From: Eledone cirrhosa | Lineage: Eukaryota | Length of the DNA: 64,000 nt | Assembly: GCA_964016885.1 (NCBI GenBank) | Contig: OZ024742.1 | Coordinates: 258,912,001-258,976,000, forward strand | Reading direction: 5' to 3' | Shown: positions 3,284 through 64,000 of the stretch, piece by piece | How the letters are laid out: each line of letters opens with the position of its first letter | Position numbering within the stretch: the stretch's first letter is position 1 | Translations under genes and position numbers: made by a program | The notes under the pieces: model-generated | What the model was told of the DNA's origin: nothing | The model's input: the letters and a program-made list of their open reading frames with translations, nothing else | Database searches by the model: none

Positions 3284-4419
3284 TCGAAAGTAAGCTTTAT
3301 AATATATCCCACACGGGTAAGAAAAGAATTTTGAAAACGCAATTTGAGTCTTAAAAAAGGTTTATATACAATAATGTATAGCCTTACCGGTTTCACAAGT
3401 TTCATGATTTTCAAAGTTTAAGAAAGATAGTGAAAAGCATGGGTATGCTGACTTGTAACTCACATCTAACATATGTTGGGAAATTGTTTTAGTTTTATAC
3501 CAAAAAAAATGAGTCTGAAATTAAAATATATTTGAAGTATAATTTGATAGGTTGAGGAAGATCAAGTGATTAGGTATCGAATTTTTTGGTAATTTCGTGC
3601 CCCAAATCGGAAGTGTCATGGTTCTTTCAGGTTTTTTGAAGAAAGGGGACTCGAGCTGAAAGTAGAATTTGATAGGCTGAGAGTCATCAGGTTTAGTGGT
3701 AATTTCGCGCCAAAATCCGAGAGTGCCGTGGTTTAGTGACTGTATACAACATCCATTGCAGTTGGTATAGATCTTGTGGCAATCCGCAAAATATAAAACT
3801 GCAAGCATTTTCTAATGAATGTATGTAAGGGTGGGTGTATGTGTGTAGTTAATACTTTTGTTTCCTGCTACGACCGAATAATAGTAATAAAAACTACAAA
3901 AATAAAAATAATTGTTTCTACTTCTTACCCAAGTATCTTACAGGTACTTTATTTTATCGACCCCGCAAGCATGAAAGGCAAAGTTAACAAAAATAATAAT
4001 TGATTCTACTTTTAGCACAAGGCCAACAATTATCCCAGTGTATTACTGGTACTTTATTTTATCGACCCCGTAACAAAAATAATAATAATAATTGGAAGGT
4101 GAATGTCCGTGTCTGTTATGGTACCTAGTTTTGGTTTCCTGCTACGTCCGTGTATATAACAAAATCAGATGAGAGATAAGAGTTCATAAAATAACTATTT
4201 ACACGTGTTTCACTACATCACGTTAGTTACAATGTCAAGACAAACAAAATAATTTGAAAAGAAAGGAAAATATATATGTAATGAACCTAGCAATCGTGAT
4301 TGCTTGTTGTATATCGTCAGATTTATTAATATATTTGTGTGTGTATATATATATATGTGTGTATGTGTGTTATGTGTATGTATACATATGTGTATGTATA
4401 TGTATATATATATATTTAT

Positions 4420-6222
4420 TAAAATAACAGATTAAAGTTTAAGCAAAGAATCGCTGCTTTCACCCTTAACGGGATCTTCTGAAACTAACAAAGTCAATCT
4501 GTAAACGCAGAACTGGATATTTCAAAAAACGTTGCAACCGGAGGAAGACAGGAAGACGATACTTTGGTTCGTGGTAACGTTCGCTGGCAAAGAACGGGAA
4601 AAAACGAATAATACGTCATTAATAGGAGCGGTGAAAAACAATTACGCGCAACGACAAAACCACGTTTATGGTATAAAAGAGGTCGTAGACTAATGTTCTC
4701 TTAGGTGGTGCATAGAGACGTTCTCTGGCAATGAACGAAAAAACGAAGATAATAAGTCATATGTGGAGCGTGGAGAACAATAGCACGCAAAGACAAAACC
4801 ACGTAAATGGTATAGCAGAAATCGTACACTAAAATTCTAACTAGGAGACCAAATGAATCTCCGCTACAGAGTTAAGAACAAAGTAAATAAATACAATACA
4901 GAAGTAATAGGAACAAATAAATACATACACGCAAACAGATACGTACATACACAAGAATACGCAAAACCTTACCATGGGTATACAAAACCACGCACATATA
5001 AATATGTGTGTGTGTGTATGCTTGTGTACAAATAAATAAATAATTATATAAACGTATATAAGTAAATAAATACGTATATAACAAGCGCACACGCATACCT
5101 ACATATAAATACACGAATGTTCGGAGACGTAAGTCAACTAAAACAAGAAGTACACATATACACACACCCACCATACGTACGAACCTGCACACTCACGCGG
5201 ACGCAAAACTCCCGTATACACATAGCCAAACCCTAAATACCAGAATATGTAAAAATTATACGCTATAACAGTCAAATATACGTACGAGAAGGTATACATA
5301 CCTTCACAAAACATACGGGTAATATATACTTACCTATGCAAATAAGTAAAGGAATAAACAAAACATATACTTAGCTCCCACATCAAGACGTAAAATATCC
5401 ACGTATAGATCGTGCTATCCGTTAGGGTATAACGTGGGGCTGTAATACAGGAAAGTTTTGTGCAATTTATGTTTACAAGCCGAAATTGCCTCAGATTTTT
5501 TGTTTAAGATGTGGTCTGTAGCGTAGAGTATTTCCAGGGCCTCAGTGGCGCAGAGGTCACATGGTCTTTTATTTCCGTTATACGATCTAGCCCTAGCTAG
5601 GATCTCCCAGTGTAACTTATATTGGGTGTGGTTGTCTTTTAGACTCCAGATATAAGCTGAAAGTGACGTCATATTCCTTCTTAGAGGGTAACGAAAAGAA
5701 TGGGTATGCATGTAAAGACGCTGCTTGAAACTATTGGCGGTTAACCCTATGTAGGCCCTACGGGACGTGGGTGTTACAACCTTACATTTGTAGACAATGT
5801 TACTAGAGAGGCATTTCCTGGATAGGGGGCAATCAGCCCGATTCCTACAATTACAGTTAGTACTACCTACAGGGTTGCACGTGTTCCTACGGCTAGGTAG
5901 TTTAGCTAAATCTGAAGCTGTGATGTTATGTGCAAGGTTAGGAGTCGTAGAGTAAGAAATTTTAATAGTATTTCTATTAAAAATGTTACTATATTTATGT
6001 GTAGGTTGAAAATGCTTCGTAATAAGGGAAAGAAAGATCTTAGCTAATGGTGTGGCCACCTCCATATTATATGGTGGGTTAAACCAACAAATGCGACGGG
6101 ATCTATTTCTTCTAGGTCTATTTTCGTACACTGTATATGCTACCTTATCGACATATCCACTTCGAGCAAGAGCTTCATTGTAATAAGTGGAATGGTCGTT
6201 GAAAATGCGCTCGTTGGCGGGA
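4420..6222 (-). mobile_element. 5'-truncated Penelope-like element (Naiad/Chlamys-like), element B
   Basis: Contains the GIY-YIG ORF below, a ~1-kb 3' UTR with a 141-bp tandem duplication (4577-4838) and a decayed HHR-like motif at about 4448-4486. Ends against TA-rich repeats. Confidence 0.85.
5415..6220 (-). pseudogene. PLE RT-thumb/linker plus GIY-YIG endonuclease, truncated ORF
   Basis: ANERIFNDHSTYYNEALARSGY...WFNPPY...IFNRNTIKISYS...CNCRNRADCPL (CxCx5C, Naiad/Chlamys signature)...NIVYKC...AYIGLT..SFKQR..H...TSLSAYIW...CDLCATE...LNKKSE...C.HK. The frame is open upstream of the annotated 6131 start. Confidence 0.92.
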
Positions 6223-6224
6223 AA

Positions 6225-7550
6225 TCAAAAGATGGTTAGAAGATGTATTTTATTATGCGCATTTCAAAAACAAATATCATCATAGGATGATACTTGCGTT
6301 CTCATCAGATAAAATAGGGAGACATGAGATGAAGTTTAAAAAACACTTACGAGCAGCGAAGTGTTAAATCTACATATGAAAAATAAAATGAGATGGATAT
6401 ATGAGATTGGGAAAAAAAGGAAGGAGGAAGGAAATGTAAGGAAGGGGAAGAAAGAAAATAAAGGATAACGAGGGAGGAGTATAAGAAGGAAGGATGAGAA
6501 ATGAGTGAGAGAGTGATAGCCTTTAGTACTGAGAAACACTGTCTCACAGAGAGAAATTTAAAAAATCGTTGTAAGATAATACATAATTTAAAAAAAAAAT
6601 TGAAATTAAAAGTTAATGAGGTTTATGAATTGTGATGTTTATGATTGAAGAAAAAGGAATTAAGAATAGTATTTATTTAATTTATTTATTTATATATTAA
6701 AGGGTTTAATAATACGTGCAAAAAGGAATTTATTAATATGTATTATTAAAATAAAAATATTAAGGAGATAAACTGAATGAAGAAGAAATTAAATGAATTA
6801 TGAATTTAGAGGAATTAGTTAGGGTCTAAGTTTGTTTCTATGTATTGTAATATGAAAAAGTAAAAAAATATATAACGTCAAAAAAATATGTTTAAAAATT
6901 TACTAATGGTAATATTAGTATATATTAAAAATATAGTTTGTGTGGCCAAGAATATAAGGAAAATGCTATAGTGAGTAATAATATGAATTAAGAAATAATT
7001 GAGAAGTAAAAGTTACAGATTAAGGATTAGAAATTAAAAAAGTAAAAAGGAAAAAAGGAAAAAAGGAAAAAAGGAAAAAAGAAAAAAAGGATAAAAATGA
7101 AGAAAAATAGGGGACCGCTAACGACATAGAATGAGTAAATTGTATAATATAATATACTGAAAGATAGGTATATTTGTAAAAGATATAAAAGCGTTTGAGA
7201 AAAGAAGATTTTAAACTAATTAGGTAGTGAGATATTAGCTGTATACTTTATGGAAAGTTCTATGGGATTTATACAAGCAGAGCAAAAATAAATCCGTACA
7301 TCTATTTATTATAGAATTAAAATTAGAGATAATGGTAAATTTCTCGGATAGGCAGAGATTACATGTTCTGGATAGGGAAGAATTCCGGGAAGAAGAGGCG
7401 TTGGAAACCTTCCTCCAAGAAATGTTGTAGTTAATATTTTTTGTCTTTTAAGGACCATATGAGTTCTGAGAGTGCCGTGTTAGTTCTTTTAAGTTGGTAT
7501 TTAAAATACGAATTGTGATTATAAAATCTTGCTTTAAAGGAAGTGGATCT
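6225..7550 (-). mobile_element. Second 5'-truncated Naiad-like PLE (element A): GIY-YIG C-terminus 7235-7550, U-rich 3' UTR and HHR
   Basis: Manual translation, absent from the ORF track: STSFKARFYNHNSYFKYQLKRTNTALSELIWSLKD / frameshift / NINYNISW...TCNLCLSEKFTII...IINRCTDLF..C.YK...*. Homologous to the ORF at 5415-5730. Confidence 0.85.
6246..6316 (-). ncRNA. Type I hammerhead ribozyme, intact core
   Basis: UAUUUUAU-CUGAUGA-gaacgcaaguaucauc(cuau)gaugauauuuguuuuu-GAAA-UGCGCA-UA|-AUAAAAUA. 8-bp stem I, long stem II, palindromic stem III, AUA cleavage triplet. Confidence 0.88.
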
Positions 7551-7889: not shown

Positions 7890-7929
<40 letters not shown>

Positions 7930-7930
7930 C

Positions 7931-8377
7931 AATTACACAATCAATAATCAAAGTTATGTTCAAATCATTTTATTGCTGACAATCGTTTCTTCCAAACTTT
8001 CGTTTGGCACCATCGGAGCAATAGCAATGTTTGTACATATAGTTAACCTCCTATTCAACTGAACAATCATGTGGATACATGGATATTAATGCTGTCAACA
8101 ACAGTTTCGTATTTACAGAGTGGAATGGATGCGACAAGAGAATTGTACAATAATTAAAATTAAAAAGCACATAGCTTTTTAATTTTAATTATTGTGCAAT
8201 AATGAAACTGTTCTTGACAGCATTAATATCCATGTAGCTACATGATTGTTCAGTTGAATAGGAGGTTAACTATATGTACAATCATTGCTAGTGCTCCGAT
8301 GACGTCAAACGAAAGTTTGGAAGAAACGGTTGTCAGCAATAAAATGATATGAAAATAACTTTGATTATTGTGTAATT
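7931..8377. repeat. Fold-back inverted repeat (arms ~7931-8108 and ~8203-8377) with an inner 27-bp-stem hairpin (8142-8200); HHR in each arm
   Basis: The arms are diverged reverse complements and begin right after (TA)n. Confidence 0.92.
8289..8341 (+). ncRNA. Type I HHR with CCGAUGA core variant; mirror copy at 7971-8023 on the minus strand
   Basis: ugcu-CCGAUGA-cgucaaac(gaaa)guuuggaa-GAAAC-gguu-GUC|-agca. The mirror copy has a 7-bp stem I (uauugcu/agcaaua). Confidence 0.72.
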
Positions 8378-8581
8378 TATATTCCTGCTCTGTAAAACAT
8401 CTCATATATTTACATTGAGCTATTTTTCTTATTGGTAATAAGGTAGTAATAAATTACTGGCCTTTCCTGCTTATAGTTGTATATAGTGTATACATAACTA
8501 TAAATAGTATCATTATTATTAAATATATAAAGTAGCAGTAATGTACTGGATAATTGCTGGCCTTGTGCCAAAAGTAGAAAC

Positions 8582-8653
<72 letters not shown>

Positions 8654-17630: not shown

Positions 17631-18227
17631 TCCCCCAACAACTACGTTCCTTCACTAACAAATGATATACAGGTGGTATCGTTTGAAGAAAAAACTATTT
17701 TTCACCAGGTAAACATTTAAAAGACCATGTTACCAGTATATACACTCATACATGTCTATGCCCAAGCAGATCTGACGGATCTTGTCCTAATTTCAGAGAC
17801 AGCCAATCGTAGCATAAAGACAATTATATACACAAAGCCATTCCATACATAAACATGGTGAGAAATTGTAGCCCATGCTTACGATAGACTTTAATCATAG
17901 TTCAGAAATGTAGTCTTGATAAAAAATTAACTTCTCGTTCTTATATTCTCTACGTAAATGAATTGACGGGATATAGATTGTAAGCGCGACGGGAGAGATG
18001 TCTCTTGATAACAACAAGTCTACATCGCATGATTTTCTTTTTCACTAGAATTCTCTAGCTACTAGCAAGAATCTTTTTTTTTTCTGTTACATATTCAATC
18101 ATGAACTAAGATAAGGTTACGAGTTCATTCTCTGTCTATATATCAATTTATACGTGACATATTGCATAATGTGACATCACATCAGTAAAATCTAGATAAA
18201 CATCATTTGATTATGTATATATATATA

Positions 18228-19363
18228 ACGGGTATGAAGCGAGGTTTTAGCTGCACTAACAAGTTTGATTTAGAACATAGCACAATGGAAAGCATCCAGC
18301 AGATAGCTAATTCCATACACCAGAGTATAACTGTAACTATCGACTACCCTTACAAACACCCTAACAATAGACTACCTGTATTAGACACGGAACTCTGGAT
18401 TAACACTATAGACGAGAGAGCCCAAATTCTCCACTCACACTATGCTAAACCCATGGCCTCCAAATACCTGATACTCAAAAACTCAGCAATGTCCAGAAGT
18501 GCTAAGTTTAATATTCTGATCGCAGATTTGGTACGAGTGATGAAGAATGTGTCCCGTATGTGCGGCCCTACAGAAATGGAAAGGCACATCCAACACTTCA
18601 TCAACCGCATGCAGTTCTCTGGCTACAACCAAAGAGACAGAGTCAGAGTATACGAAGGAGCCATGGAGAAGTATAAGACCCTCATAGAACTGGACAGGAA
18701 AGGAATTTGCCCATTATACAGGAGCAAATCATGGAATAGCTTAGATAGAGCTAGACATAAGATAGGGAAAGCCACCTCATGGTACGACAACCAGAGATAC
18801 CAGAGTGTCATGTTTGTGGACGTTACCCCTGGAGGGAAATTAGCTAAACAGTGTGGAAAGGCCATGAGAAAGACCCACTTAAAGATTAAGGTGGTAGAAA
18901 AGCCAGGAACCACCATAAAATCCCTGATCAGCAAAACCTACCCTTTTAAGAAAACCCACTGTACTAATAGGAAATGTATCATATGTAAGGTAAACCCCCG
19001 GTAAACTGTAAAACTAGAAACGTAGTCTATAGCTTAAGATGTACAGAGGGTACTTGCAGAAACATGACAACAACATACATAGGCGAGATAGCTCGAAGCA
19101 TAAGTGAAAGGATAGACCAAAACTGTGGGGAGCTAAAAGGACGAAAAAACGATTCAGTACTATACGAACATGCCAGACAACAACACGACGGTAACATAGA
19201 CAACATAGAAATTAGAATAATATCTAAACATAGAAATGACCCAGCAGATAGGCAAATCAGAGAGGCCAGTGAAATAGAACTTAGAAGGCCAAAGCTAAAC
19301 AGAAAGAATGAATGGAATAACAACAACACCCAAACAAACAACACTGACCTAAGAGAAGTATAA
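18228..19363 (+). pseudogene. 5'-truncated PLE: RT C-terminus/thumb, Cys-rich linker and GIY-YIG, with one frameshift near 19000
   Basis: IANSIHQSITVTIDYP...LPVLD...YAKPMAS...SGY...PLYR...VMFVDVTPGG.L...KVVEKPG...CTNRKCIIC / shift / NCKTRNVVYSLRC...YIGEIARS...SVLYEH...RQIREA...LNRKNEW. Starts right after (TA)n. Confidence 0.92.
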
Positions 19364-19623
19364 ATAAATAAATAGATAAATAAATAAATAAATACATACA
19401 CAAGCACAATAACAACAAACACATATAAACACACACTAGTAAATATAGAATACATTAACCAATACACAGTCACCCAATCACGAACACACATCAAACAAAA
19501 CACTATACACACACACAAACGCATGCGCAAAGAAGACAAAATAAAATAAACAAATAAATAAATACGTAAACAGACTAAATAAAGATGGCGTAGAAAATGT
19601 AATGCAACGGTAGGAAACAATAG

Positions 19624-19668
19624 CACCACTGACGATGTTGCAGATGTGCAACGAAAGATCTTTGATAG
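19624..19668 (+). ncRNA. Minimal type I HHR in the PLE 3' region
   Basis: acca-CUGACGA-u-guugca(gaug)ugcaac-GAAA-GAUC-UU|-ugau. Palindromic AGAUCU stem III; stem I has one mismatch. Confidence 0.75.
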
Positions 19669-19883
19669 ACTATATATATGTGTTTGTGTCTATATTGTAT
19701 CTATATTATTTTTTACCGTTGGTCAGTCAATGGCAATATTGAGGACCGAATAAATTAGATTACCGATATAAAAGACACAGAAGCGAAAAGCGAAAACCAA
19801 CCAAACAGTGACTGTATTCGACACACAATTTCATATCAAAAACCTCGCAAAACTAATTCATCGCCGTTATATATATATATATA

Positions 19884-20009
19884 TGATGATTTCTAAAGAA
19901 TGAAACAGTTCTAGTCCTGTAGAATCTCATCTATATTAAAACTTTTATACTCTGCTATGTATTGAGTACCTTACTTACTGTGGTTACCTCCGATTCAACC
20001 CGGAATAAC

Positions 20010-20051
<42 letters not shown>

Positions 20052-20238: not shown

Positions 20239-21430
20239 GACACACATACACACACATATATATGCATATATATATATAAATGTGTATGTGTGTATCTGTA
20301 GTTTGTGATGTATATAATGTATCACACTAATGCAAAGATGGCCTATTTGTTGCAACGGTTTCACTACAAAATATATGAAGACACACTCCTCGCAGCTCCT
20401 CACACTTATCGTGTATTTGTAATTGAGGGGGGTGTAAGAGAGTTACTAAAAGGAGTGTGGAAGGATAGAGAGAGGATGGGATAGAGCTAGCATATGCATT
20501 TATATATATATATATGCGTCATTTCGTGCTTTTTAGGTGAATCCATTAAGCTGCATTCAAGAACCTGAACATTGTATGTGTGCGTGACAGCTGACAGGAA
20601 GTAGTTGACTGCTGACTACTGATGGCTTAAAGTTCAATAGATGGCGGTGGTGATGCTAGATTTCATAGTAGTGGTGATAGTGATGGTATAGTTGGTATTG
20701 AGTATGTTTTGGTGATGATAGAAGCTTTGGTGCTGCTGTTGATTTTCTGTTCTTTTTAAGATATGTATGGTGTGGGCGTGTGTGATGGTTAAGGAAATAT
20801 ACAATTTGAACTGGATGACAATGATCATCATTATTACGATTGATGTATTAACCCTTTAGATACCAAACCACTTTAAAATGCCCCTAGCTCTATGAAATTG
20901 TCAATTTTAAACTGTATGTATCTAAAATCATTCCATCATAATATTACGTAAGAAACTATTTAATTACGTTCCAAACACCAGCCTTATGAGGAGAAAGTTA
21001 TTTACATTATGAAATCCTTTCCAATTTCTGACTATTTTCAAAATACATTCAAAATCATTGGCAGTGTCTCTCATTAGATATGTAGAAGGGAGTGCTATGT
21101 TGATAATGGCAATTGCTATTATTGTGATTCAAATCATGCTGAGGACAACTTTGGATTTTATCCTTTTGTGGTCAATGAAATGAAATATAGGCCAAGCACG
21201 GGATCGATTTAATCTAGTTTCCCTTCCTCTTAAATCTATGGCCTTTTGTCTACGATAGAAACCATTTAGTCGAACAAATGCTAAGAAATTTTTGTTCGAG
21301 CTCGTTATTTTCGGATTTCAAATCCACCAAAGTTTTTTTCACCATCGTCATCATCGTCATCATCGTCATCATCGTCATCAACATCACAAACATTTTCGTC
21401 ACCACCACCATCATCGACATTATTATTACC

Positions 21431-21573
21431 GATCCCGCCGAGGTTAGCTTTGCCTTTCATCCTTATGGGGACGGTAAAATAAAGTACCAGTAATGCACTA
21501 GGGTCTATGTAACCGACATTCCCCATCCTTTCAAATTGCTGGCCTTGTGCCAAAATTAGAAATAATTATTATT
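21431..21573 (+). mobile_element. SINE, 5'-truncated
   Basis: atcccgccgaggttagctttgcctttcatcc...aaataaagtaccagtaa...ttgctggccttgtgccaaaattagaaa. Confidence 0.8.
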
Positions 21574-21974
21574 GTAAAAATGAAGGTGGACGGGGTAGTC
21601 AAGGATGAGGACGAGAGTGTGGGGGGGGGGATCCCGATGGATGATGATGATGATGATGGTGACTAAGGTGCTGGTTCTGCTGACGAAGACTATTATTATG
21701 TTTAAGAAATGAAGGAAAGGAGAAGGGGCCTGAAAGTGTTAATGTTAATGTAAGCCGAGATGATTGCCGCAGTAACGATGTGGATTGTGAAAGGGGGGTG
21801 GGGTGAATGATCGAGTTGAGAGGTGATGATGTGATTGGGGGAGGGGTTGTTTTTGATGATGACGAACGGGGGAAGTTGTTATTTATGGTGATGACGAATT
21901 GGCACAGAATTATTGATGTAAATGGTTACACACACAGGTGACATACACAGGCGCACACACACAGGTATATATAT

Positions 21975-22144
21975 ATTGTTTCTACTATTGGCACAAGGCC
22001 AACAAATAACCAGTACATTACTGGTACTTTATTTTATCGACCCCGTAAGGATGAAAGGCAAAGTTACCCTCGGCGGGATTTGAACTCAGAATGGCGTCAA
22101 AGCATGACGTCCGACCCTCTACCGATACTGCCAGTTCATCGCCC
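21975..22144 (-). mobile_element. tRNA-derived SINE
   Basis: Minus strand: gggcgatgaactggcagtatcggtag (A-box-like)...ctgagttcaaatcccgccgagg (B-box)...3' tail. Confidence 0.85.
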
Positions 22145-23127
22145 ACAGGTATATATATGTTATGTAGATATGTGTTTATGTTTATGTTTGTATATTGGTA
22201 AACTATTAGACCAGAGCGGTTAATAACGACCGCAATATCGGTGAACATATATAATTTTTCATGCCCGGAATTGATGTCATATATCCGCGGAGTACCAGAT
22301 ATGTGTACAATCATACCAAATTGAAAATTTGCGTTTTGATAAATCAGTAAGAGATAATCTATAGTTTATGTTGAATATTGACACGTGGAAGATTTTTGAA
22401 GATAATAATGATATTTGAATCATTTATTTCTAGGAAATAATCGCATAAATGCTCCTTCACATTATAATATATTATAATATATATATAGTATAATATAATG
22501 TGAAGGCATAAATGCTCAGCATTTACATACAAAGGGCTGAATACATGTATGAGTAACGTTGGAGAAATATGGACACATCAAGGGTTAGATCAAGGATTTT
22601 CTGATTGGAAAGCAAATTTCATTTTGGAGCAACGAGACTGAGATAGGAAATACATTGTCGTACATATGTGTGTGTATATTCACATGTATAAATTGTAAAG
22701 AGGTTTTCTATCGATACACTTATCCTGTTACTATGGTTGATTATCGGTGTGAATCTTTATGAGAGATTGAAGGGTATGAAGATTTCGTAGCTAAGGGCCG
22801 TCATTAACTCATGCTGTGTACATTTCGATATAAAATCAGAATCTTGCTGTGTGAGAGGAGTGAAGTAACGAAATTCACAGTGTGATGCACCAAACATAAA
22901 TATATAATATGAGAAACAGCAAAATCCCAGCAGCTGTTATCTATGATCATCTTTGTTTTATTGTAACAACAAAGAGTGTGGTGGTGACATAATGCTCTAT
23001 GATGCAAGTTAAGCAGAAACATCATTCTTATTTAGAACAATTAATATCGTCAACATCGCACTCATACTTGTTGACAAAATCCGCCCCCTTCTCCTCCTCC
23101 TCCTCCTTCTCCTCATTATCATTATCT

Positions 23128-23319
23128 GATAATTGTTTCTGCTTTTGGCACAAGGCCAGCAATTAACCAGTGCATTACTGGTACTTTATTTTATCGACCC
23201 CTTAAGGCTGAAAGGCCGAGGTTAACTTTGCCTTTCATCCTTACGGGGTCGATAAAATAAAGTACCAGTAATGCACTGGTTAATTGCTGGCCTTGTGCCA
23301 AAAGTAGAAACAATTATCA
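23128..23319. repeat. Head-to-head inverted pair of SINE 3' halves
   Basis: About 90-bp arms, near-perfect reverse complements around gccgaggttaacttt. Confidence 0.88.
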
Positions 23320-24057
23320 TTATCATCATCAACATAATCATAATCACCAGCATCAGCATCAGCATCACTCTCTCCATCATCATCATCATTATCATCATCA
23401 TGCTCATCCGCCCCCAGCCATCAATATCATTATTATCACCATCCTCATCACCACTGTATCATCATCATCATCATCGTCATCATTATCATCATCATCATCA
23501 TCATCTACACTAGAGTCCTGATCCCGGCGTTAACATTATTTTCCCAATGACTATCTCATCATCTACATCAACAACCCCCACCCCAGCCTTCCGGATCTGT
23601 AAAGCAATTTATTCACGGTTAAGTTCACCTAGTCTTCAGGGCTAGCCCAATGTGATACCGGGCTCGTTCTCCATTGATCACAAATATTTCACTATATCTT
23701 TAAGTCTTCTTTTTGCGTGTTTGGCGGGCATGAGTTTGTCGAGTGAAGGCAGGATTTATAAGCATGTTTAAAATCAATGTAATGTTGCTGTGAATATTCA
23801 GTAATTGCTCTCTCAATTTATTTTTCTTATGCTTATATATATACTCTCATCTATCATTTTCTTTTTTATTTTAAATCTCATTCTATCTTCGGAATGCCTA
23901 ACAACCGAGACTTTAACACTCTTTTCCTACTACATCCAGCGTTAAATTAATATACATCTTCATTGCATTGGATCTTTTCCTGCATTGTTTATTCGCACAT
24001 ACACATCCATACTCCCAATTACACACACAAACAAATACACAAATATATCTATACACA

Positions 24058-28103: not shown

Positions 28104-28555
28104 CAAATACACATACACACACACACGCCCACATATATAAATATATATATATATAGAGAGAGAGAGAGTGCGCGCGTGTGTGTGTGTGTGTGAGTGCGTG
28201 TGTGCATGAGTTTATAGTAATGTATGATTTAAACATTTGGCGTCTATTTGATACAGGATTTTCTTTTGATTTAGTTGTTTTGGTACAGTCCACCGTATTA
28301 GCATCATCATCACAATTACCATTATTCGGCTCTGCTTGAACACTCTAATCATCAATGACTTTCTAATTGTAAGCATCTTATTTCAATTATTCGCTACCGT
28401 GTATCTAGGACATGTGTCTCAATAGTAGCGTATTCGGATACCATCCTGTGGTATTGAGTTCATTTCACAGGTGAGCAAAACAAGATATTTACCGTTCAAA
28501 GGAACAGTGTATCCACATCTTGAGTCACAATGAATCTCCTTGAGAATTAACATCA

Positions 28556-29591
28556 TCCAATCAGCATAATTAACCACACAAAAAATCAATTAAACTAGGC
28601 TATAAGTTTAAAAAGCATCTATGAAGAAACAATACATAAATAAACGATAGCTATTTTATCCGCGATCAACAGCCACAGAATGTTTACCCAGTATTTCTAC
28701 TAGCCCGTGGAAATTGATTAGATATATAGCCAACCATACACAATTAGGTACAAAATCAAAGTTAGAAGAAAAAATGTATATAAGCATACCAAAATTATGT
28801 CTCTACACCATGAGTTATTTAATTAATTTGTCATTGAGCCACACCGTGAATGGTTGCCAAAAACACATATATGTATCTATGGCTCTGTCTAGTTTATGCA
28901 AATCTATATATTTTATAATCTCCCATATGGTTGAGAAACAAGTTAGGCAGTATTCGGCTGCGCTTTCTAGCTACCAGCCATCTCACCGTAAGGCACCAAT
29001 CACAAACTTTCTGACTTGAACACTAGCCACGTCACAGTTCTTAGCCATTTTAAATTCGTTTCTGGCGGGGATCATTTAAGAAAAATCTTTGTCCAATTGA
29101 GTTTGTTTCCTGATGATTTCGAAACTTGATCGGATATTTCCAAAAAGCGAATGAAACCACATGGTGTAGAGACATAATTTTGGTATGCTTATATACATTT
29201 TTTCTTCTAACTTTGATTTTGTACCTACTTGTGTATGGTTAGCTATATATCTAATCAATTTCCACGGGCTATTAGAAATACTGAGTAAATATTCTGTGGG
29301 TGTTGATCGCGGATAAAATAGCTATCGTTTATTTATCTATTGTTTCTTCATAGATGCTTTTTAAACTTATAACCCTGTTTAATTGATTTTTTGTGTGGAT
29401 GATTATGCTGATTGGGAGAGAAAATACTGTATATATTTTATCAAATGATTCTATGGACGTACTTTCTTGTATATTGCTCTGATTGTTGATTATTTAATTA
29501 ATTAATTCGTCATTGAGCCACACCGTGAATGGTTGCCAAAAACATATCTATATATCTATGGCTCTGTCTAGTTTATGTACATGTAAATCTA

Positions 29592-29600
<9 letters not shown>
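28556..29600 (+). mobile_element. ~680-bp tandem non-coding HHR unit (about 1.15 copies, 28813-29600) preceded by an inverted 255-bp segment (28556-28811)
   Basis: cattgagccacaccgtgaatgg recurs at 28832 and 29511 (period 679). 28556-28811 is the reverse complement of about 29160-29415. Confidence 0.88.
29105..29173 (+). ncRNA. Type I HHR
   Basis: guuuc-CUGAUGA-u-uucg...cgaa-u-GAAAC-cacauggu-GUA|-gagac. Confidence 0.72.
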
Positions 29601-29630
<30 letters not shown>

Positions 29631-29705
29631 AGAGAAAGAGTCGAAGTCAGTGTTGCAGCACATGTACAAGAAAACATCTAACACACGCACACACACACAC
29701 ACACA

Positions 29706-35129: not shown

Positions 35130-35368
35130 ACAATATATTAATAAATGGAAACTATATTTATAAAACCATATTTATTTTATTATATATATTTCAAGGGCAA
35201 CCAAGGCAAATTATGGTGCGCTTTCATCAGATAAAATACAGATTTGTTTTATAAATAAATATTGACATACCCGGAAAGCGCACCAAGACTGCCTTGGTGG
35301 CCCTTGAAATATCTATAATAAAATAAATATGGTTTTATAAATATAGTTTCCATTTATTAATATATTGT
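35130..35368. repeat. Fold-back inverted repeat with ~95-bp arms, carrying an HHR
   Basis: 35130-35224 is the reverse complement of 35274-35368. Confidence 0.9.
35173..35238 (-). ncRNA. Type I HHR, intact core
   Basis: UAUUUUAU-CUGAUGA-aagcgcacca...ugguugcccuu-GAAA-UAUAUA-UA|-AUAAAAUA. Confidence 0.85.
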
Positions 35369-37508: not shown

Positions 37509-37594
<86 letters not shown>

Positions 37595-37597
<3 letters not shown>

Positions 37598-38283
37598 TAT
37601 TTTCCGTTGTGTTGTAATATAAATATTACACACAGTAGATTGACAGCTCACGTAGAGTTTGCTCGACGGTTCCAGTTGTAGTTCCAAAAGTAATCCGGAG
37701 AAAAATAGAAAGATTTGGATGGATACAGTTTAGTTGAAAGGAATTTATTGACACGTGTTTCTATAACAGTTACATAACCCATGAACATGTTACTATGTGA
37801 ATGTGAGTATATGTATTTTGTAGAGGTGTGCAAATATGTTTGTGTGTGAATGCGTGGGTGAAATTTAAGTCTGAATGTTAATTAAGTGCAAACACAAAAC
37901 CAACCACGCATATCTTTACTATCTCTAATCCTTCTATAGATTTAGAAAAATAACCAATAATATATTCTATAAAAATGTCAAAACAACAGATGGGAATCTA
38001 ATTACTCACTGCCACCAAAAATTCTCACTGCTATCAAAAAACCACTCCCTCAACTATTCTTCTAACAACTTCACCCCTCCCTCCTAATATTCTCTATAAA
38101 AATCAAACAGGTCTTCAGTAATATTATTCTGATGAAATGACAGTAAATAATAACATTGAAATATTGAATGTCTGTATAACTAATACTTTGTAGATAGCAG
38201 CTGTTTTCAGGTTATGTAACTGTTATAGAAACACGTGTCAATAAATTCCTTTCAACTAAACTGTATCCATCCAAATCTTTCTA
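37595..38283 (+). mobile_element. TA-flanked non-coding HHR module: inverted 3' tail (37595-37779) plus forward body (37860-38283)
   Basis: 37706-37779 is the reverse complement of 38210-38283. A near-identical family member lies at 63165-64000. Confidence 0.85.
38124..38244 (+). ncRNA. Type I HHR, perfect core, with a ~75-nt insertion in stem II
   Basis: UUAUU-CUGAUGA-a-augacagu-[~75 nt]-acuguuau-a-GAAAC-ACGU-GUC|-AAUAA. Confidence 0.82.
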
Positions 38284-38285
38284 TA

Positions 38286-40658: not shown

Positions 40659-41216
40659 TTGGTGTGGGATGCTTAAAGCGTCCGTGAGCGGTATGCCGTA
40701 TGAGCACTCGATGCTCTTACAGAGCAGAGTATAATATCACATAAGAAACGGAGAATCAGTGGTGCTACGAATAAGATGTATTAGACATATTACAATCATT
40801 TCTCTGGCGACCAGCTCGAGACACGATCGATGCAATGATCAAACCTGACTCTGAAACCGCAAGATCCTCGGATATGTCTCGATTCTACGAAGCAGAGTTT
40901 CCAAAGATTTTGGAAACTCTGCTTCGTAGAATCGAGATTTGTTATACTTGGGGTGGGTCATATTGTTGTAATATTGTCAGAAATAATAACAGAACACACT
41001 CACTGTTTGGTTGGTTTTCGCTTCTGTATCTTTTTTATCTCTAAAGTTAATTTATTTGGCAATCGATTGACCAGCGGTTAAAAATACAGATATAAATATA
41101 TATATATATATATATTCTCTATCAAATTTCTTTCGTTGCACATACGCAAACATCATCAGTGGTACTATTATGTTCCCTCCCATTGTATTGTAATGTCTAC
41201 GCCATTTTTATTTAAG

Positions 41217-48715: not shown

Positions 48716-49394
48716 CATTATTAATTAGTATTTCAATTATATCAGGGAATTCTAATGTTTATTCTCATTTATTTAAGATTTCTTAGGGCCACACTTAAAA
48801 TTGTTTCGGAACATATAAGTGTAGCTCCGAAAATGTAGGTTAGATGTTATGACGAAAATATCGCATTCTAAAGGTTTTAGTTATTTAATTCTTAGATGGG
48901 AAATGTGTATATCGATAAATCAAGACCAGAGAATGGTTTTTCAATAATTTCAGAGATATAGAGGATACTTTCCAGTTCATGTGTTTTACTGCATCTTTTC
49001 CACATAATTCCACGTAGTATACTTTGCAGAATAGGCCAGGCTTTACAAATTCATTGTTGAGGTAATAACCATCGAACAATATTGCTAGATTGAGCAGGAA
49101 ATTCCGAGTAGCATTTATAATTTCTAAAATATTGTATTCTTTGCAAATATTAAGTATTCTATACTTTATTACGCACGCAATTATATATAACATATACTTA
49201 GTTTATATATGGGGCATTCCAGATAATTTCACAACTGAATGAAACAATATCAGTCCTGTAGAAGTCAATTCAATTTGAAATAAATTCTTTCTCCCTCGCT
49301 CTCTCTTCAGAGAAAAAATACACACAAGCACTCACACACATACACATACACACACATACACACACATACACACACACATATATATATATATATA

Positions 49395-49473
<79 letters not shown>

Positions 49474-49842
49474 GTGAGTGCTTGTGTGTGTTTTTTTCTC
49501 TGAAGAGAGAGCGAGGGAGAAAGAATTTATTTCAAATTGAATTGACTTCTACAGGACTGATATTGTTTCATTCAGTTGTGAAATTATCTGGAATGCCCCA
49601 TATATAAACTAAGTATATGTTATATATAATTGCGTGCGTAATAAAGTATAGAATACTTAATATTTGCAAAGAATACAATATTTTAGAAATTATAAATGCT
49701 ACTCGGAATTTCCTGCTCAATCTAGCAATATTGTTCGATGGTTATTACCTCAACAATTTTAAGTGTGGCCCTAAGAAATCTAAAATAAATGAGAATAAAC
49801 ATTAGAACTCCCTGATATAACTGAAATACTAATTAATAATGT
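48716..49842. repeat. Near-perfect inverted duplication centred on a (CA)n(TA)n(TG)n tract; right arm lacks ~250 bp
   Basis: 49054-49340 vs 49465-49757 and 48716-48805 vs 49752-49842 are reverse complements. The deletion is bounded by attgtt microhomology. Confidence 0.92.
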
Positions 49843-49938: not shown

Positions 49939-50444
49939 GTGTGTGTGTGTGTATGTGTGTGTGTGTGTATCGACATTTGTAAGTGAATGTGAGTGCCTGT
50001 GTCTGTCTCCTTCTGCCTAGCTTTTATATAACTTTGATAAAAACAATGGTATATTTCTGTAAAATTTACTGGAAATGGAGAGCTATTTAGAGTATTTGCT
50101 TTAATTATTCTGCGATATTAGCTAATAATACTCTAAGCTCTATTATGCTAGAAATTGCCTGTTGCTAATTTTGATGGGACAATTCACTATTCACTTCTGT
50201 TTCTTTTATTTGCTATACTGAAGTTATTGTTTGCATTTTTTCTACTATCACTCTGTGCGCTATACAATACAACTTACCACACGAACACACTTACATAGAA
50301 TACATGTAAATCCAGCATACACCATACTGATGTTGACAACCTAACTATATTTCTCAAAGACGCAGTGTCCTCGTTGTATTGCGTATATAATTTTAATCAG
50401 TAATATCTATGGAGATTGTGCCGTATTATTTATTGTAGAGTTAC

Positions 50445-50576
50445 GGCCCTTACCATTCTGAGTTCAAATCCCGCCGAGGTTAACTTTGCCTTTCATCCTT
50501 ACGAGGTCGATAAAATAAAGTACCAGTAATACACTGGGTAATTGCTGGCCTTGTGCCAAAAAGTAGAAACAATTAT
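50445..50576 (+). mobile_element. tRNA-derived SINE, 5'-truncated; a more decayed copy follows at about 50600-50760
   Basis: ttctgagttcaaatcccgccgaggttaactttgcctttcatcc...ccttgtgccaaaaagtagaaac. Confidence 0.85.
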
Positions 50577-51285
50577 TTATTGTGATTTCAAGACTGCAAA
50601 ATGGCAGGGCTGTCAAGAAGTTGTATTAAATACCTCAGTATTAGTTTCGAAACTCCCTACTCTTAGTTTGAGTCCAGTTGAGGCCAACGTTGTCTTTCAT
50701 CCTTTAGGTACAGATAAATCTACCAAACAAAAGTACCAAACCATTATTGAGTTTGATTCGTCGGGCACTCCCTATAATTTTGTTCTGCTCACTCTTTTTC
50801 ATTTACTTCCCTCCGTGCCTTCTTTATCAGTTGTTCTTACACTTAATATATCACAGATATTGTGTTGTAGAATTATTTCGGAAGATATCTCATGTTGTCT
50901 CTCAAATTTGTCTGTGTAATTATGTGATTAATGTAGGGCGTTCGAATATAGTTCACTTTTATACTTCTGTTTCTCAATTCAAAATACTTCTATAATTGCT
51001 GTACTATAGAAAACAAAACAACGCTGAGGCAACCTCGACTCTATTAAGAGACTATTTTTTTCTACTTTTAGACCACAACCTGCATCACCATACAAGTTTT
51101 AACATTGTTAAAATGCGATAAATATTTTGTACTACATGTCAAACGTCAAACATATCTTTACAAAAGCCGGGTTGATTGTGCGATCTCAAGACAACAATTT
51201 CTGTTGACTGGATTGCCGAAAACGAAGAAAAAGATTTATTAGCTTGCTTAAGTATATTATTCTACAGAACTCAACTCCTTATATA

Positions 51286-54101: not shown

Positions 54102-54476
<375 letters not shown>

Positions 54477-54506: not shown

Positions 54507-54565
<59 letters not shown>

Positions 54566-54567
<2 letters not shown>

Positions 54568-54667
54568 GTTATTCCGGGTTGAGTCGGAGGTAACCACAGT
54601 AAGTAAGGTACTGATGATTTCTAATGAATGAAACAGTTCTAGTCCTGTAGAATCTCATCTATATTAA

Positions 54668-54670
<3 letters not shown>
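54566..54670 (+). mobile_element. ~105-bp TA-flanked module: inverted tail joined to an HHR core lacking its 5' stem I
   Basis: 54566-54612 is antisense to about 19965-20010. It is followed by CUGAUGA-u-uuc(uaau)gaa-u-GAAAC-aguucua-GUC (54611-54644). Confidence 0.78.
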
Positions 54671-54744
<74 letters not shown>

Positions 54745-55475: not shown

Positions 55476-56812
55476 AGAGCGAGAATGAGGGGCTCATTTT
55501 ACTGACATGACTTAAAAGGGGCTGTTTGTGAAATTGCAAATGAATCGAATATTATTATTAATATTAAAACAACTGAGATTACATATATATATATATAACG
55601 AGCCGGAATGCACGTTTATTATGTATAGAATTATTTTATGGAGACACACTGGGATTAACTGTAGTTATTATAGCGAAACATTGTATATCTCGACGCAGCA
55701 AGCCTAAATGTTTGATTATTGTAATATCTTACATATCTACCATTTCCCCCACTTCGAAAACTTTCCAAAATGAATAGTCGCTGGAAGTAAATACATTCAT
55801 GTTTAAGAGGGCCAACCTATCACATTTGATATCGATTTGAAAATAGGTTTATATGCGTTGCATGCGGTAAATATAATGTCACCAAAGTAAAACGATCCTT
55901 TCGTGTTTATTCTACAGATAATACTGCAAGAGAGCAGGAGAGGGTGAGAGAAAGTTTCAAAGACACAGGAGAAATGAGAAAGAGAGAGAGAGTGATATGA
56001 AGAAAGATGGAGGGAGAGAGAGAATCAAGAAGAAAATAGTACAATTGTTGAATCAAAGTTAGAATTGCAATGCTTTCAAATGCAGCTGCTAACTGTTAGA
56101 TTAAAATTAATGCTTTCCTTTGTGTGACTTGTAGCATTCTGTGTAGGAGATCAGTAATTTTAATTACTAAGTCATTGAAATGATTGGTAGCAGAAACCAT
56201 GGCATTTTACTTGAACAAAAAAAATGTGAAGAAATAGTGATATGAGACAGAAATTTAATATAGAGAGAAACAATGTGAATATATTGACGACAGAGACAAC
56301 TTTAGAATTTACTGCTGCTAATATCACCTGAAGCACTTGAAACGACAAAATGAATATCTACGAGATTTTTATTGGAAATCTATAGAAAACGGGTATCTTT
56401 TCTATAAATGGCTTCATGCATAGAATATGCCGGATGTTTGTAGAATATAGAAGGAGTAGGCCATTTATACCTGTAATTAATTATTAGCACTAATGATAAA
56501 CCCTCAAGGACATTGCTGTATAACTTAGTGCATTGGAGTATACATCTAACAGAATGATTATTGGTAATTCTAATCAGTCAGAAAATAGATAATTCCACAC
56601 AAATATCTCTTTTGCAACTTTAAAAGAGGAACTATTTCTCTTTGGTTAATCGTAATGAATACCTTATTAATAAGTAGAACTTCTAGTAACTATTCATTGA
56701 AGTATAAACTGATCAGATGTAAAATAAATTGCTTTGCTGTGAGGAAGGGAAAACATCTTACGTTTCAGGTCGTACTCATGAAAACCAACTTAGATTATTC
56801 ATTCTGCTCAAT

Positions 56813-57001
56813 AACTGTTTCTACTTTTGGCCCAAGGCCAGCAATTACCCAGTACATTAATGGTACTTTATTTTATCGACCCCATAAGGATGAAAAGCAA
56901 AGATAACCTCGACGGGATTTGAACTCAGACCGTAAAGGGACGAAACTATGCTAGAAAGCATGGCGTCCAACCCTCTACTGATACTGCCAATTCACCGCCC
57001 T
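56813..57001 (-). mobile_element. Full-length tRNA-derived SINE
   Basis: gggcggtgaattggcagtatcagtag (A-box-like), ctgagttcaaatccc (B-box), and the family body and tail. Confidence 0.88.
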
Positions 57002-60020: not shown

Positions 60021-60761
60021 TATATATGAACAAATCCAAGACCCCGACGGTTGAGCTCCTGCTGTTTCAACAGCTAGATCCGAACTCGTGATTTCTTATG
60101 AATGAAGCAGTTCTACTCCTGTAGAATCAGTTCTATAATAAATTGAATATACTCTACTAAGGTATTGGGTACTTATTTTGACTTTTGGTTGTCTCCCAAT
60201 TAACATTATTATCCTACATATTATAAATACATATATAGTCGAGTGGCTTTGCATTGTCAGATGCAAGTTTAATCTTACTGCGATATAGATCCGGCATAAG
60301 ACAGGGTGTTTGGCAAGGTAGGATTACAGTTCTATGTGTCAAGTCTGTGTCAAGCCCGGAGGGTTATCAGGCCGGTGCTAACCACGGTTTCCATGGTGTT
60401 AAGCGACTGAGAGTACAATACAATACTCCCCAGGACAGAGGCGCCAGTCTATCGCAGGCTTTTAACTCGCACCTATTGCTGGCACTCATTTTCAGTTGCT
60501 TAAGAACACAACACAAAACCCAGACCAGGAATTGAAACAACAACGTCATGGTCGACACATTGGTGAAATAGAGACACGTGATCATGTCATTCTCCAGAAC
60601 TGATCAAGCCCCCAAAAGCTGAACTCAGAAAATGTTATCGAAACTTGATTAACATTTTAGTTTCTTACGTTATGATTTGGTATTTCCTCGTTTCTTATCA
60701 ATGGTAACGTATTTTATGCATTTTTAATTTTTGGCTGATTCATATAGCGGCAATCTTGTCC

Positions 60762-61319: not shown

Positions 61320-61352
<33 letters not shown>

Positions 61353-61354
61353 CA

Positions 61355-62277
61355 AAAAGTATGTCCATAGCATCATTTGATAATATATATGCACAATTTC
61401 CTCTCCCAATTAGCATAATTAACCACACAAAAAATCAATTAGACCAGGCTATAAGAGTAAAAGGCACCTATGAAGAAATAGTAGATAAATAAACGACAGC
61501 AATCTCTTAGCGACCAACCGCTATAGAATATTTATTCAACATTTCAATAGCACGTGGAAACCGATTAAATATTTCGTCAATCATACACAATTAGGTATAA
61601 AATTAAAGTTAGAAGAAAAAATGCATATAGACATACCAGGATTACGTTTCTACCCTATGGTTTTATTCGCTTTCGGAAATATCTTATTAAGGATAAAATC
61701 TCGAGCTTCGAACTCATCAGGAAACAAACTCATTTGGACAAAGAATTTTCCTAAGTGATATCCGCCAGAAACGAATTCAAAATGGCTAAGAACTGTGACG
61801 TGGCAGTGGTCAAGTCAGAAATAATGTGATTGGTTGCTTACAGCGAATGGGCTGGTTGCTAGAAAGCGCAGACCAATATTGCCCAAATTGCATCTAAACC
61901 TTATGGGAGATTACTAAATATAAAGATTTACATATACACAAACTAGACAAAGTCACAGATATATATGTTTGGGCAACCATTCACGATGTGGCTCAATGAT
62001 GAATTAATAAATTAAATAATCAGAGCAATATACTATAAAGTATCTGCATAGAATCATTTGATAATATATATACACCATTTCCTCTCCCAATTAGCATAAT
62101 TGACCACACACAAAATCAATTAGACTAGGCTATAAGATTAAAAGGCACATATGAAGAAATAGTAGATAAATAAACGACAGCAATCTCTTCGCGACCAACC
62201 ACACTAGAATATTTATCGAGCATTTTAACAGCACGTGGAAATGGATTAAATATACCGTCAACCATACACAATTAGGT
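61355..62277 (-). mobile_element. Second locus of the ~680-bp tandem HHR unit (about 1.35 copies), TA-flanked; HHR at 61646-61725
   Basis: cctctcccaattagcataatt at 61400 and 62081 (period 681), colinear with 28813-29600. HHR: guuuc-CUGAUGA-guucg...cgaau-AAAAC(G12A)-cauagg-GUA|-gaaac. Confidence 0.88.
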
Positions 62278-62307
62278 AATATATATATATATATACATAC
62301 GTGCGTG

Positions 62308-62454: not shown

Positions 62455-62868
62455 TAAAATAAAGTTAAATAAAAGTCAAATGATTAAAATTTAGCTTCGT
62501 TTATTACTGCTATATATATTTCAGTGACAGCCATCTTTGGCTGTGACCTCTTCAGGCAGTTTGAATTAGTATGGTATAGACAAATACATATGTTGTTTAG
62601 GTGTATGATATTGTCAATACTCTGATATGCCCAGTTCCTTTCTGGGTTGTTAATTCACTTCCAGTTCCCCAGTGAATTAACAACCCAGAAAGGAACTGGG
62701 CATATCAGAGTATTGACAATATCATACACCTAAACAACATATGTATTTGTCTATACCATACTAATTCAAACTGCCTGAAGAGGTCACAGCCAAAGATGGC
62801 TGTCACTGAAATATATATAGCAGTAATAAACGAAGCTAAATTTTAATCATTTGACTTCTATTTAACTT

Positions 62869-62875
<7 letters not shown>
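62455..62875. repeat. Near-perfect ~205-bp-arm palindrome (one mismatch seen), 11-nt spacer, HHR in each arm
   Basis: 62455-62659 is the reverse complement of 62671-62875. The right end abuts (TA)n. Confidence 0.95.
62770..62824 (+). ncRNA. Type I HHR, intact core; identical mirror copy at 62506-62560 on the minus strand
   Basis: ACUGC-CUGAAGA-ggucacagcca(aaga)uggcugucacu-GAAA-UAUAUA-UA|-GCAGU. Confidence 0.9.
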
Positions 62876-63049: not shown

Positions 63050-63135
<86 letters not shown>

Positions 63136-63685
63136 AATATATATGTATATATATATATATATATACAGTATTTTCCGTAGTGTTGTAATATAAATATTAC
63201 ACACAGTAGATGGACAGCTCACGTAGAGTTTGCTCGACGGTTCCAGTTGTAGTTCCAAAAGTAATCCGGAGAAAAATAGAAGGATTTAAATGGATACAGT
63301 TTAGTTAAAAGGAATTTGTTGACACGTGTTTGAATAACAGTTACATAACCTGAAAACAGCTGCTACAAAGTATTAGTTATGCAGACATTCAATATTTCAA
63401 TGTTATTATCAACTGTCATTTCATCACAATAATTTTACTGAGAACCTGTTTGGTTTTTATAGAGAATATTAGGAGGGAGGGGTGAAGTTGTTAGAAGAAT
63501 AGTTGAGGGAGTGGTTTTTTGATAGCAGTGAGAATGTTTGGTGGCAGTGAGTAATTAGATTCCCATCTGTTGTGTGTGTGTGTATATATTGTGTCGGGTC
63601 CCATTATCTTGAGTGTACCTGGAGCTGATCGATATCGAAACAATTATAATATGCCATTAAAATTTGTACATATGCTGCGACACTG
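62922..63685. repeat. ~115-bp direct repeats (62922-63034 and 63572-63685)
   Basis: tattgtgtcg.gtccc.ttatcttgagtgtacctggagctgatcg...gctgcgacactg occurs twice. Confidence 0.88.
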
Positions 63686-64000
63686 GACGAAAGGATACGT
63701 ACACTTGAAAGAAAAATTTAAGTCTGAATGTTAATTAAGTGCAAACACAAAACCAACCATGCATATATATACTATCTCTAATCCTTCTATAGATTTAGAA
63801 AAATAATCAATAATATATTCTATAAAAATGTCAAAACAACAGATGGGAATCTAATTACTCACTGCCACCAAAAATTCTCACTGCTATCAAAAAACCACTC
63901 CCTCAACTATTCTTCTAACAACTTCACCCCTCCCTCCTAATATTATCTATAAAAACCAAACAGGTCCTCAGTAAAATTATTCTGATGAAATAACAGTTGA
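63165..64000 (+). mobile_element. Second locus of the extended-stem-II HHR module: inverted copy 63165-63572 and forward copy from 63715 running off the window
   Basis: High identity to 37595-38283. The inverted copy has mutated core residues (GUGAUGA, CAAA). The forward copy shows ttattCTGATGA at the window end. Confidence 0.85.

Follow-up and report, generated by a model that had tools for sequence, protein, structure and literature searches.

A 680-base, hammerhead-bearing repeat of Eledone cirrhosa as a probable ORF-less derivative of Penelope-like retrotransposons

Two loci within the 64-kb window (the whole 64,000-nt stretch of Eledone cirrhosa DNA analyzed here) carry the same unit of about 680 bases, with a type I hammerhead motif and no ORF, and we consider it likely that this unit is an ORF-less derivative of a Penelope-like retrotransposon (PLE). 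The best explanation overall, to which we give a probability of roughly 0.55, is that the unit is a nonautonomous PLE derivative, equivalent to an animal non-LTR retrozyme, and that it is copied by the series of steps described below. On our best reading, the unit has kept the parts that act in cis, i.e., promoter-like words, the hammerhead, an intron-like stretch, a hairpin, and a start site for reverse transcription, and has kept no ORF. It may be a new family of a known kind, the retrozymes, with a possible circular RNA stage. The initial annotation had called the unit retrozyme-like, and this description is well borne out by an ORF-less, head-to-tail unit with a type I hammerhead and many copies.

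When locus 1 (28815–29474) was compared with locus 2 (62015–61348) by BLASTN, the two shared 80.1% identity over 680 columns with a score of 602 bits, whereas base shuffles of locus 2 (n = 50) peaked at 30 bits. The period of the unit was 679 at locus 1 (+ strand) and 681 at locus 2 (− strand); Tandem Repeats Finder, which has a period limit of 500, was blind to it. The presence of the same non-coding unit at both places and the two periods, as annotated at the outset, were thus recovered. The unit has a GC content of 0.337, in a window of 33% GC and a host genome that is AT-rich and microsatellite-rich, and it has no LTR pair, only a partial tandem overlap. The longest stop-free frame of the locus 1 unit is 81 aa, and neither locus has an ORF within the cycle.

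The forward run of locus 1 spans 28815–29596 (+ strand), i.e., 782 nt or 1.15 units of 679, with a direct overlap of approximately 100 nt. Its second pass (29494–29596, + strand), a repeat of 28815–28911, comes to an end on one of the TA runs in the unit, where it merges into (TA)n at 29590–29630. Beside the run lies an inverted 5′ piece (28557–28812, − strand), which is the reverse complement of 29160–29415 (256 nt, 95% complementary) and extends from 9 nt before the predicted hammerhead cut to the 3′ base of the rod-like hairpin described below. This piece and the forward copy have minority letters in common at positions 29165, 29171, 29188, 29263, and 29354. Locus 2 (61348–62278, − strand) is 931 nt long, equal to 1.37 times its 681-nt unit, and is flanked on either side by (TA)n; its two passes (62278–62028 and 61597–61348) overlap directly by 250 nt and are 90% alike. 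When the cycle is numbered from the first base after the predicted hammerhead cut, locus 1 extends from 326 through 679 to approximately 422–427, its inverted piece from 671 round to 247, and locus 2 from 54 through the end of the unit to 306. The two loci therefore start and end at different points of the unit, as had been noticed. The observation that each holds more than one unit head-to-tail also stands, but because the piece at 28557–28812 is inverted and lies outside the run, the head-to-tail length comes only to the 1.15 and 1.37 units given above.

The predicted type I hammerhead of locus 1 occupies 29104–29174 (+ strand), with a predicted cut after 29168. It consists of a 6-bp stem I (29104–29109 with 29169–29174), a core at 29110–29116, a 4-bp stem II (29118–29121 with 29148–29151) behind a T·T, the GAAA at 29153–29156, and a 2-bp stem III; its defects are the T·T at the base of stem II and a C·T at the third pair of stem III. 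In the motif of locus 2 (61645–61726, − strand; core from 61720, predicted cut after 61651), stem II is longer and complete, and an A (61664) replaces G12. A loose type I descriptor that passes both copies, from which the chance figures derive, was satisfied by 2 of 5,000 and 0 of 5,000 dinucleotide shuffles; under a stricter descriptor, locus 1 failed and locus 2 passed only with G12 relaxed. Rfam gave no match, hammerhead or otherwise, in the window at the gathering score, the 11 sub-threshold matches obtained over 28500–29650 at E-values of up to 10 included no ribozyme, and unconstrained folding did not recover the active ribozyme fold. A CTGANGA core was found at both loci, once in each. 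The motif annotated as one hammerhead per unit is therefore beyond chance at both loci, but there is one core per locus, not two, and each motif is defective. In the sequencing runs described below, the commonest letter at 29165 was G in three runs (3171/3237 by depth in X1; 80 of 97 reads in X6), which pairs with C29158 and so gives stem III its third pair, and the commonest letter at 29171 was A; the motif of the family is therefore better than the copies in the window. Because each locus has a single, defective hammerhead, neither is able to release a monomer, and both are decayed, one-ribozyme offspring. Two consecutive complete ribozymes, by which a preprint recognizes an active copy, are present at neither (Li, Clavereau and Pollet 2026, 10.64898/2026.07.22.740005; here and below, papers are cited for the portions of their text that were available).

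The unit (28813–29491) was aligned at 80% likeness to four public sequencing runs from three studies (X1, X4, X5, and X6). Eight runs were listed, five of them with part of the stretch; X2, X3, X7, and X8 were left out of the family counts, no RNA run was listed, and the list does not address expression. The alignments yielded 2,875 contigs in X1, 61 in X4, 1 in X5, and 2,717 of 12.5 million reads in X6, figures that are not copy numbers. The unit is multicopy, with two loci within 64 kb in addition to these contigs and reads, although the runs may be from another species: the best run contained a share of 0.30 of the sampled words of the stretch, and its source may therefore be a related organism or an individual that lacks locus 1. 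Exact-pattern scans for further loci in collections of metagenome, viral, and genome contigs gave no hits. The head-to-tail joint 29491→28815 occurred in three of the four runs, from two studies (five contigs and variant joints in X1, one contig in X4, and one in X5); X6, a restriction library, had no such joint, and its reads stop there at apparent restriction sites. Two further candidates were rejected, namely, the read-end piles of X6 at 29053/29056, 29381/29384, 28821, and 29218, which we infer to be restriction sites of the library, and the skips over the ribozyme in X4 (29103→29198 and 29123→29181), which are probably unaligned stem II variants.

Among the loose ends listed, 44 contigs of X1, 1 contig of X4, and 182 reads of X6 broke off behind 29474 into (AT)n; position 29169 was absent among them, and 364 further rows of loose ends and 174 of variants lay outside the list. 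The TATAT run at 29470–29474 (+ strand), 306 nt after the cut, is the common 3′ end of the family. Locus 2 ends at the equivalent of 29474, and locus 1 passes through it and ends approximately 116 nt later on another TA run, so that both 3′ ends in the window sit on TA runs, of which the unit has six. Shared fixed ends had been named initially as evidence against a retrozyme, and half of this pattern was found: the 3′ end at 29474 recurs in three of the four runs and at locus 2, and the 5′ ends vary. The common 3′ end therefore indicates priming of the PLE type rather than free permutation. Opposite-strand joints were present in X1 at 29169/29323, 29180/29395, 29245/29419, and 29250/29331, in one contig each.

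Both loci share promoter-like words at 28996–29051 (+ strand), namely, CCAAT at 28996, ACGTCA at 29029, CAGTT at 29035, and GCCATTTT at 29044, which we take to be CCAAT box, CRE, initiator, and YY1 sites; positions 29015–29054, upstream of the ribozyme, are the best-conserved 40-nt bin between the loci (93%). A predicted intron-like stretch of 171 nt (29183–29353, + strand) has its donor 14 nt after the cut and a pyrimidine-rich acceptor, TTTCTTCATAG/, with the donor-like site reading G/GTATGC at locus 1 and G/GTATGT at locus 2 (61636). The intron-like descriptor, which was picked after the signals had been seen, was satisfied by 3 of 5,000 shuffles, and no joint skipping 29183–29353 was present in the aligned sequencing runs. 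The predicted rod-like hairpin (29224–29416, + strand; approximately 190 nt, 62 predicted pairs) lies in a region that was picked after the folding of the whole unit had been seen, and it folds with z-scores of −4.9 (locus 2), −4.2 (inverted piece), and −2.4 (forward copy of locus 1, which has a different predicted fold). Changes in its pairs were one-sided in 17 and two-sided in 1, and covariation in the four sequences was not above shuffles (68/500). For the whole unit, z was −1.5 as a circle (40 shuffles) and −2.5 as a linear molecule (20 shuffles). Two insert ends coincide with the base of the rod, namely, the 5′ terminus of locus 2 (29222) and the outer terminus of the inverted piece (29415); a coincidence seen twice is no more than a lead.

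The non-LTR retrozymes of animals consist of type I hammerhead repeats, 150–450 bp long and arranged in tandem, and those of coral, mussel, and axolotl accumulate as circles (Cervera and de la Pena 2020, PMC7229834). In the preprint, retrozyme families range in length from 51 to 972 bp, with a mean of 650 bp in ray-finned fish, and retrozymes are traced to the pLTRs of PLEs; in the text available, no mollusc was sampled and one of nine tested dimers was cleaved (10.64898/2026.07.22.740005). The present unit is like these retrozymes in being an ORF-less head-to-tail unit with one type I hammerhead per unit, a GC content of 34%, and many copies, in a genome that also contains PLEs. Its length exceeds the 150–450 bp of PMC7229834 but falls within the 51–972 bp of the preprint, and the initial description of the unit as unusually large is not sustained: with that published range, the kind is known and a size of approximately 680 is unexceptional. 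Three features found here go unmentioned in the available text of the retrozyme papers, namely, signals like those of an intron, a 3′ end that is internal, fixed, and continued by (TA)n, and 5′ pieces in inverted orientation. Our literature search found no description of a cephalopod retrozyme among the papers listed (the available text of PMC10886601 held nothing relevant; the supplements of PMC7229834 and the preprint, Repbase, and Dfam lay outside the search). In the giant squid genome, 235 hammerhead matches were counted and left undescribed in the available text (PMC6962438), and Penelope expansions have been noted in octopus and squid (PMC8967140).

The traits of PLEs include partial tandems, inverted 5′ copies, and a bias toward (TA)n (Craig et al., 10.1101/2021.04.23.441226), and such insertion traits are also given in PMC3846280. 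The unit resembles EN+ PLEs (Penelope/Poseidon, Neptune, and Hydra) and their pLTRs in having a partial tandem, a 5′ piece in inverted orientation, a repeat that contains the hammerhead, a 3′ end located downstream of the ribozyme, signals like those of an intron, and apparent (TA)n targets. Unlike EN+ PLEs, it has no RT plus GIY-YIG ORF in its cycle; furthermore, its 3′ end lies 306 nt after the cut, compared with approximately 85–92 nt in the anole PLE, as worked out from the available text of PMC11167929, the second end of locus 1 lies approximately 116 nt further on, compared with a tail of 30–40 bp, and its 6-bp stem I and long stem II differ from the minimal hammerhead of those elements. 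The purified anole PLE begins reverse transcription inside the RNA and cuts AT-rich DNA on both strands, and between its start site and the cut DNA there is no homology (PMC11167929); the ends of the present unit, in contrast, lie on TA runs. Plant LTR retrozymes (PMC4918200) have likewise a non-coding, ribozyme-bearing monomer of 600–800 nt; however, they carry type III ribozymes in LTRs, a primer site, a polypurine tract, 4-bp duplications, and a GC content above 55%, in contrast to the type I ribozyme and 34% GC found here.

Pieces of the PLE type were observed elsewhere in the window. The 269-aa end of a PLE-type ORF with GIY-YIG-like motifs lies at 5415–6224 (− strand), with a hammerhead-like core just upstream, at 6308 (−), and a 139-bp two-copy repeat (4577–4832) downstream. 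At 18189–19870 (+ strand), a PLE-type ORF end interrupted by a frameshift (271 aa + 124 aa) has a cysteine linker before its GIY-YIG-like part, which we take to be Neptune-like; it has a CTGACGA core at 19629 and terminates in (TA)n, and a 72% related piece occurs at 40992–41214. Atlas features of the ORF ends at 5415–6224 and 18189–19363 scored 0.97 and 0.95, respectively, to clusters of which some were GIY-YIG or HTH_animal and others unnamed. Pfam gave nothing significant for the PLE-like frames of the window and, for host genes, no families in 83 frames (82 of the 158 complex frames of at least 55 aa, plus a 31-aa frame), so that no host gene or lineage marker emerged. The PLE ORF ends, with their GIY-YIG and HTH_animal Atlas clusters, support the derivation of the unit from a PLE. 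Comparison of the PLE pieces with the unit gave no real match (best E-value, 0.002, in TA-rich letters), and it counts against this derivation that no autonomous partner sharing the ends of the unit was found among the PLE pieces in the window.

Several other repeats were observed in the window. A head-to-head palindrome at 62455–62875, 177 nt from locus 2, has 205-nt arms that are 100% complementary, with a hammerhead-like motif in each (cores at 62775 on the + strand and 62555 on the − strand), and is a different, very young PLE-like family. Further palindromic insertions occur at 49053–49757, 7926–8382, 54102–54357, and 23127–23319, the first centered on a microsatellite and bearing CTGAAGA cores at 49310 (−) and 49500 (+), and another hammerhead-like motif, at 35230 (−), has an 8-bp stem I and a layout like that of the motif at 6308. 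A dispersed SINE-like family, 78–96% alike, was found at 21967–22144, 23129–23321, 50439–50580, 56810–57000, 3925–4073, 8527–8594, 1401–1527, and 21429–21546; it presumably resembles the tRNA-derived SINEs of octopus, and ARAGORN found no tRNA module. Together with the frequency of Mollusca among the Atlas neighbors, this presumed resemblance makes an octopus host plausible. A rearranged duplication of approximately 900 nt (63084–63997 versus 37513–38284) has 93–100% identity with pieces in both orientations, and a short dispersed family lies beside (TA)n at 19884–20048, 54529–54671, and 60089–60237, with a CTGATGA core at 54611.

In the preferred explanation, a master locus of at least two units would be transcribed head-to-tail. 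An RT-endonuclease, presumably supplied in trans by a PLE, would nick (TA)n DNA and prime at an internal site of the RNA; this site would usually be the TA run that follows the ribozyme site by 306 nt and occasionally another one, in keeping with the observed ends. Reverse transcription would then run back across the uncut ribozyme site into the preceding unit and stop variably, which would give the permuted copies of 1.15 and 1.37 units whose anatomy we observed, and second-strand priming or fold-back may add an inverted 5′ piece, as at locus 1. The traits of a sequence mobilized by PLEs are present in the partial tandem, the variable 5′ end, the preferred 3′ end downstream of the ribozyme, the inverted, 5′-truncated copy at 28557–28812, and the four opposite-strand joints of X1. 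At locus 1, no target-site duplication was found (the best shared word was 6 nt), the left flank is not (TA)n, and the right flank is.

As the template, uncut linear read-through RNA is slightly favored over a ligated circle. With the purified anole PLE, ribozyme mutants insert normally and uncut RNA is the main substrate (PMC11167929). Between the two passes of locus 1 there is a 6-nt indel whose short and long forms both exist in the family; this leans slightly toward two template units, although the stretch is prone to slippage. The absence of 29169 from the loose ends listed also speaks for a linear template. At locus 2, the 29 differences between the passes comprise 12 and 11 private ones and 6 unresolved ones, and of 15 variable places that were checked, 12 are the same in both passes; a circle and a uniform master would account for this pattern equally well.

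The circle is the alternative that survives best, and we hold it as a tentative one. Tandem ribozymes of the master would cut out a 679-nt monomer, a host ligase would close it, and a PLE RT would travel round it more than once from an internal start. Each locus is longer than one unit and spans the cut site, and the initial suggestion that such copies fit reverse transcription around a circle is sound to this extent; however, a length above one unit is explicable without a circle, and uncut read-through RNA is an equally good source (PMC11167929). The majority letters of the family (29165 G and 29171 A) improve stem III and stem I over those of locus 1, and the passes of locus 2 appear to have been identical when they were inserted, but two ribozymes are present at neither locus, and the folding of the whole unit is just modestly above shuffles (z-scores as above). 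Retrozyme circles have been demonstrated in coral, mussel, and axolotl (PMC7229834), and circles were proposed as PLE templates in 2014 (PMC4209133), whereas only the one dimer in nine was cleaved in the preprint. The inversion joint at 29169, in one X1 contig, lies at the first base after the cut, and the sole X5 contig appears to close on itself, although the loop has no ribozyme and a tandem DNA array would close likewise. This contig (record 17, from a different organism than the source of X1; 633 nt, depth 2.4) covers 29176–29491 and then 28815–29098, and its final 24 letters match 29180–29203. Because its ends overlap by approximately 30 nt, it can be read as a closed loop of approximately 603 nt, which appears to lack the 81-nt ribozyme between two AATT words. 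The loop may stem from a tandem array without the ribozyme, or from an RNA template on which the enzyme switched across stem I; a single contig of such low depth proves neither.

We think it improbable that the 679 nt would make up a complete minimal PLE replicon, with a promoter, a ribozyme, a spliceosomal intron that is retained, and a 190-nt hairpin for recognition, in which an intron-retaining circular RNA would be read repeatedly from a fixed internal start and would give rise to ribozyme-free circular or tandem offshoots. We also consider improbable the explanation that the loci are pLTR regions of an ORF-bearing PLE, 5′-truncated or locally duplicated, with no separate nonautonomous family. 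The unit has the contents of a pLTR, i.e., promoter-like words, a hammerhead, and intron-like signals, and most PLE insertions are 5′-truncated according to the available text of the preprint (10.64898/2026.07.22.740005). Moreover, a 25-codon frame from the ATG at 29405 across the common end resembles the start of an ORF within pLTRs (PMC3846280), and one X4 contig departs from the unit at 29456 into other sequence. However, at both loci the next unit follows the common end directly, leaving no room for an ORF, and the head-to-tail joint recurs in three runs. In addition, the 19 loose ends listed, mostly indel variants of the unit or (AT)n, had no apparent shared ORF junction, so that a simple pLTR origin, envisaged in the initial annotation as what would overturn its reading, is unsupported by these joints. 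A vestigial ORF start at the 31-aa frame across the common 3′ end was also rejected: in a weak test, its profile, searched against 1.84 billion proteins, had two matches, both repeat proteins and taken as chance. A DNA-level element or dispersed satellite without an RNA step, e.g., of the Helitron-associated DINE-1 type, in which inverted pieces, partial duplications, and adjacent microsatellites occur and in which the hammerhead would be a relic, is consistent with the defects of both ribozymes in the window but is very improbable, because the varied inversion points, the fixed 3′ and variable 5′ ends, and the ribozyme pairing kept by the family majority point to the polarity of retrotransposition.

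The probable nonautonomous PLE derivative described here adds one large retrozyme family to a class that has already been described and already been tied to PLEs. It carries the insertion marks of PLEs, i.e., a fixed internal 3′ end, inversions, and apparent (TA)n targets, on a retrozyme, and this link is more direct than a shared host range. It also bears on whether the terminal repeats of PLEs are copied from a circle or an uncut multimer, for which circles were proposed in PMC4209133 and cutting was unnecessary in vitro in PMC11167929. Being short, abundant, and free of ORFs, with a fixed start site and numerous copies that exceed one unit, the family can serve as a test bed in which the two passes of young copies are compared. 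If the unit is indeed a minimal replicon with hundreds or more short copies, genome data alone could decide between circles and uncut multimers.
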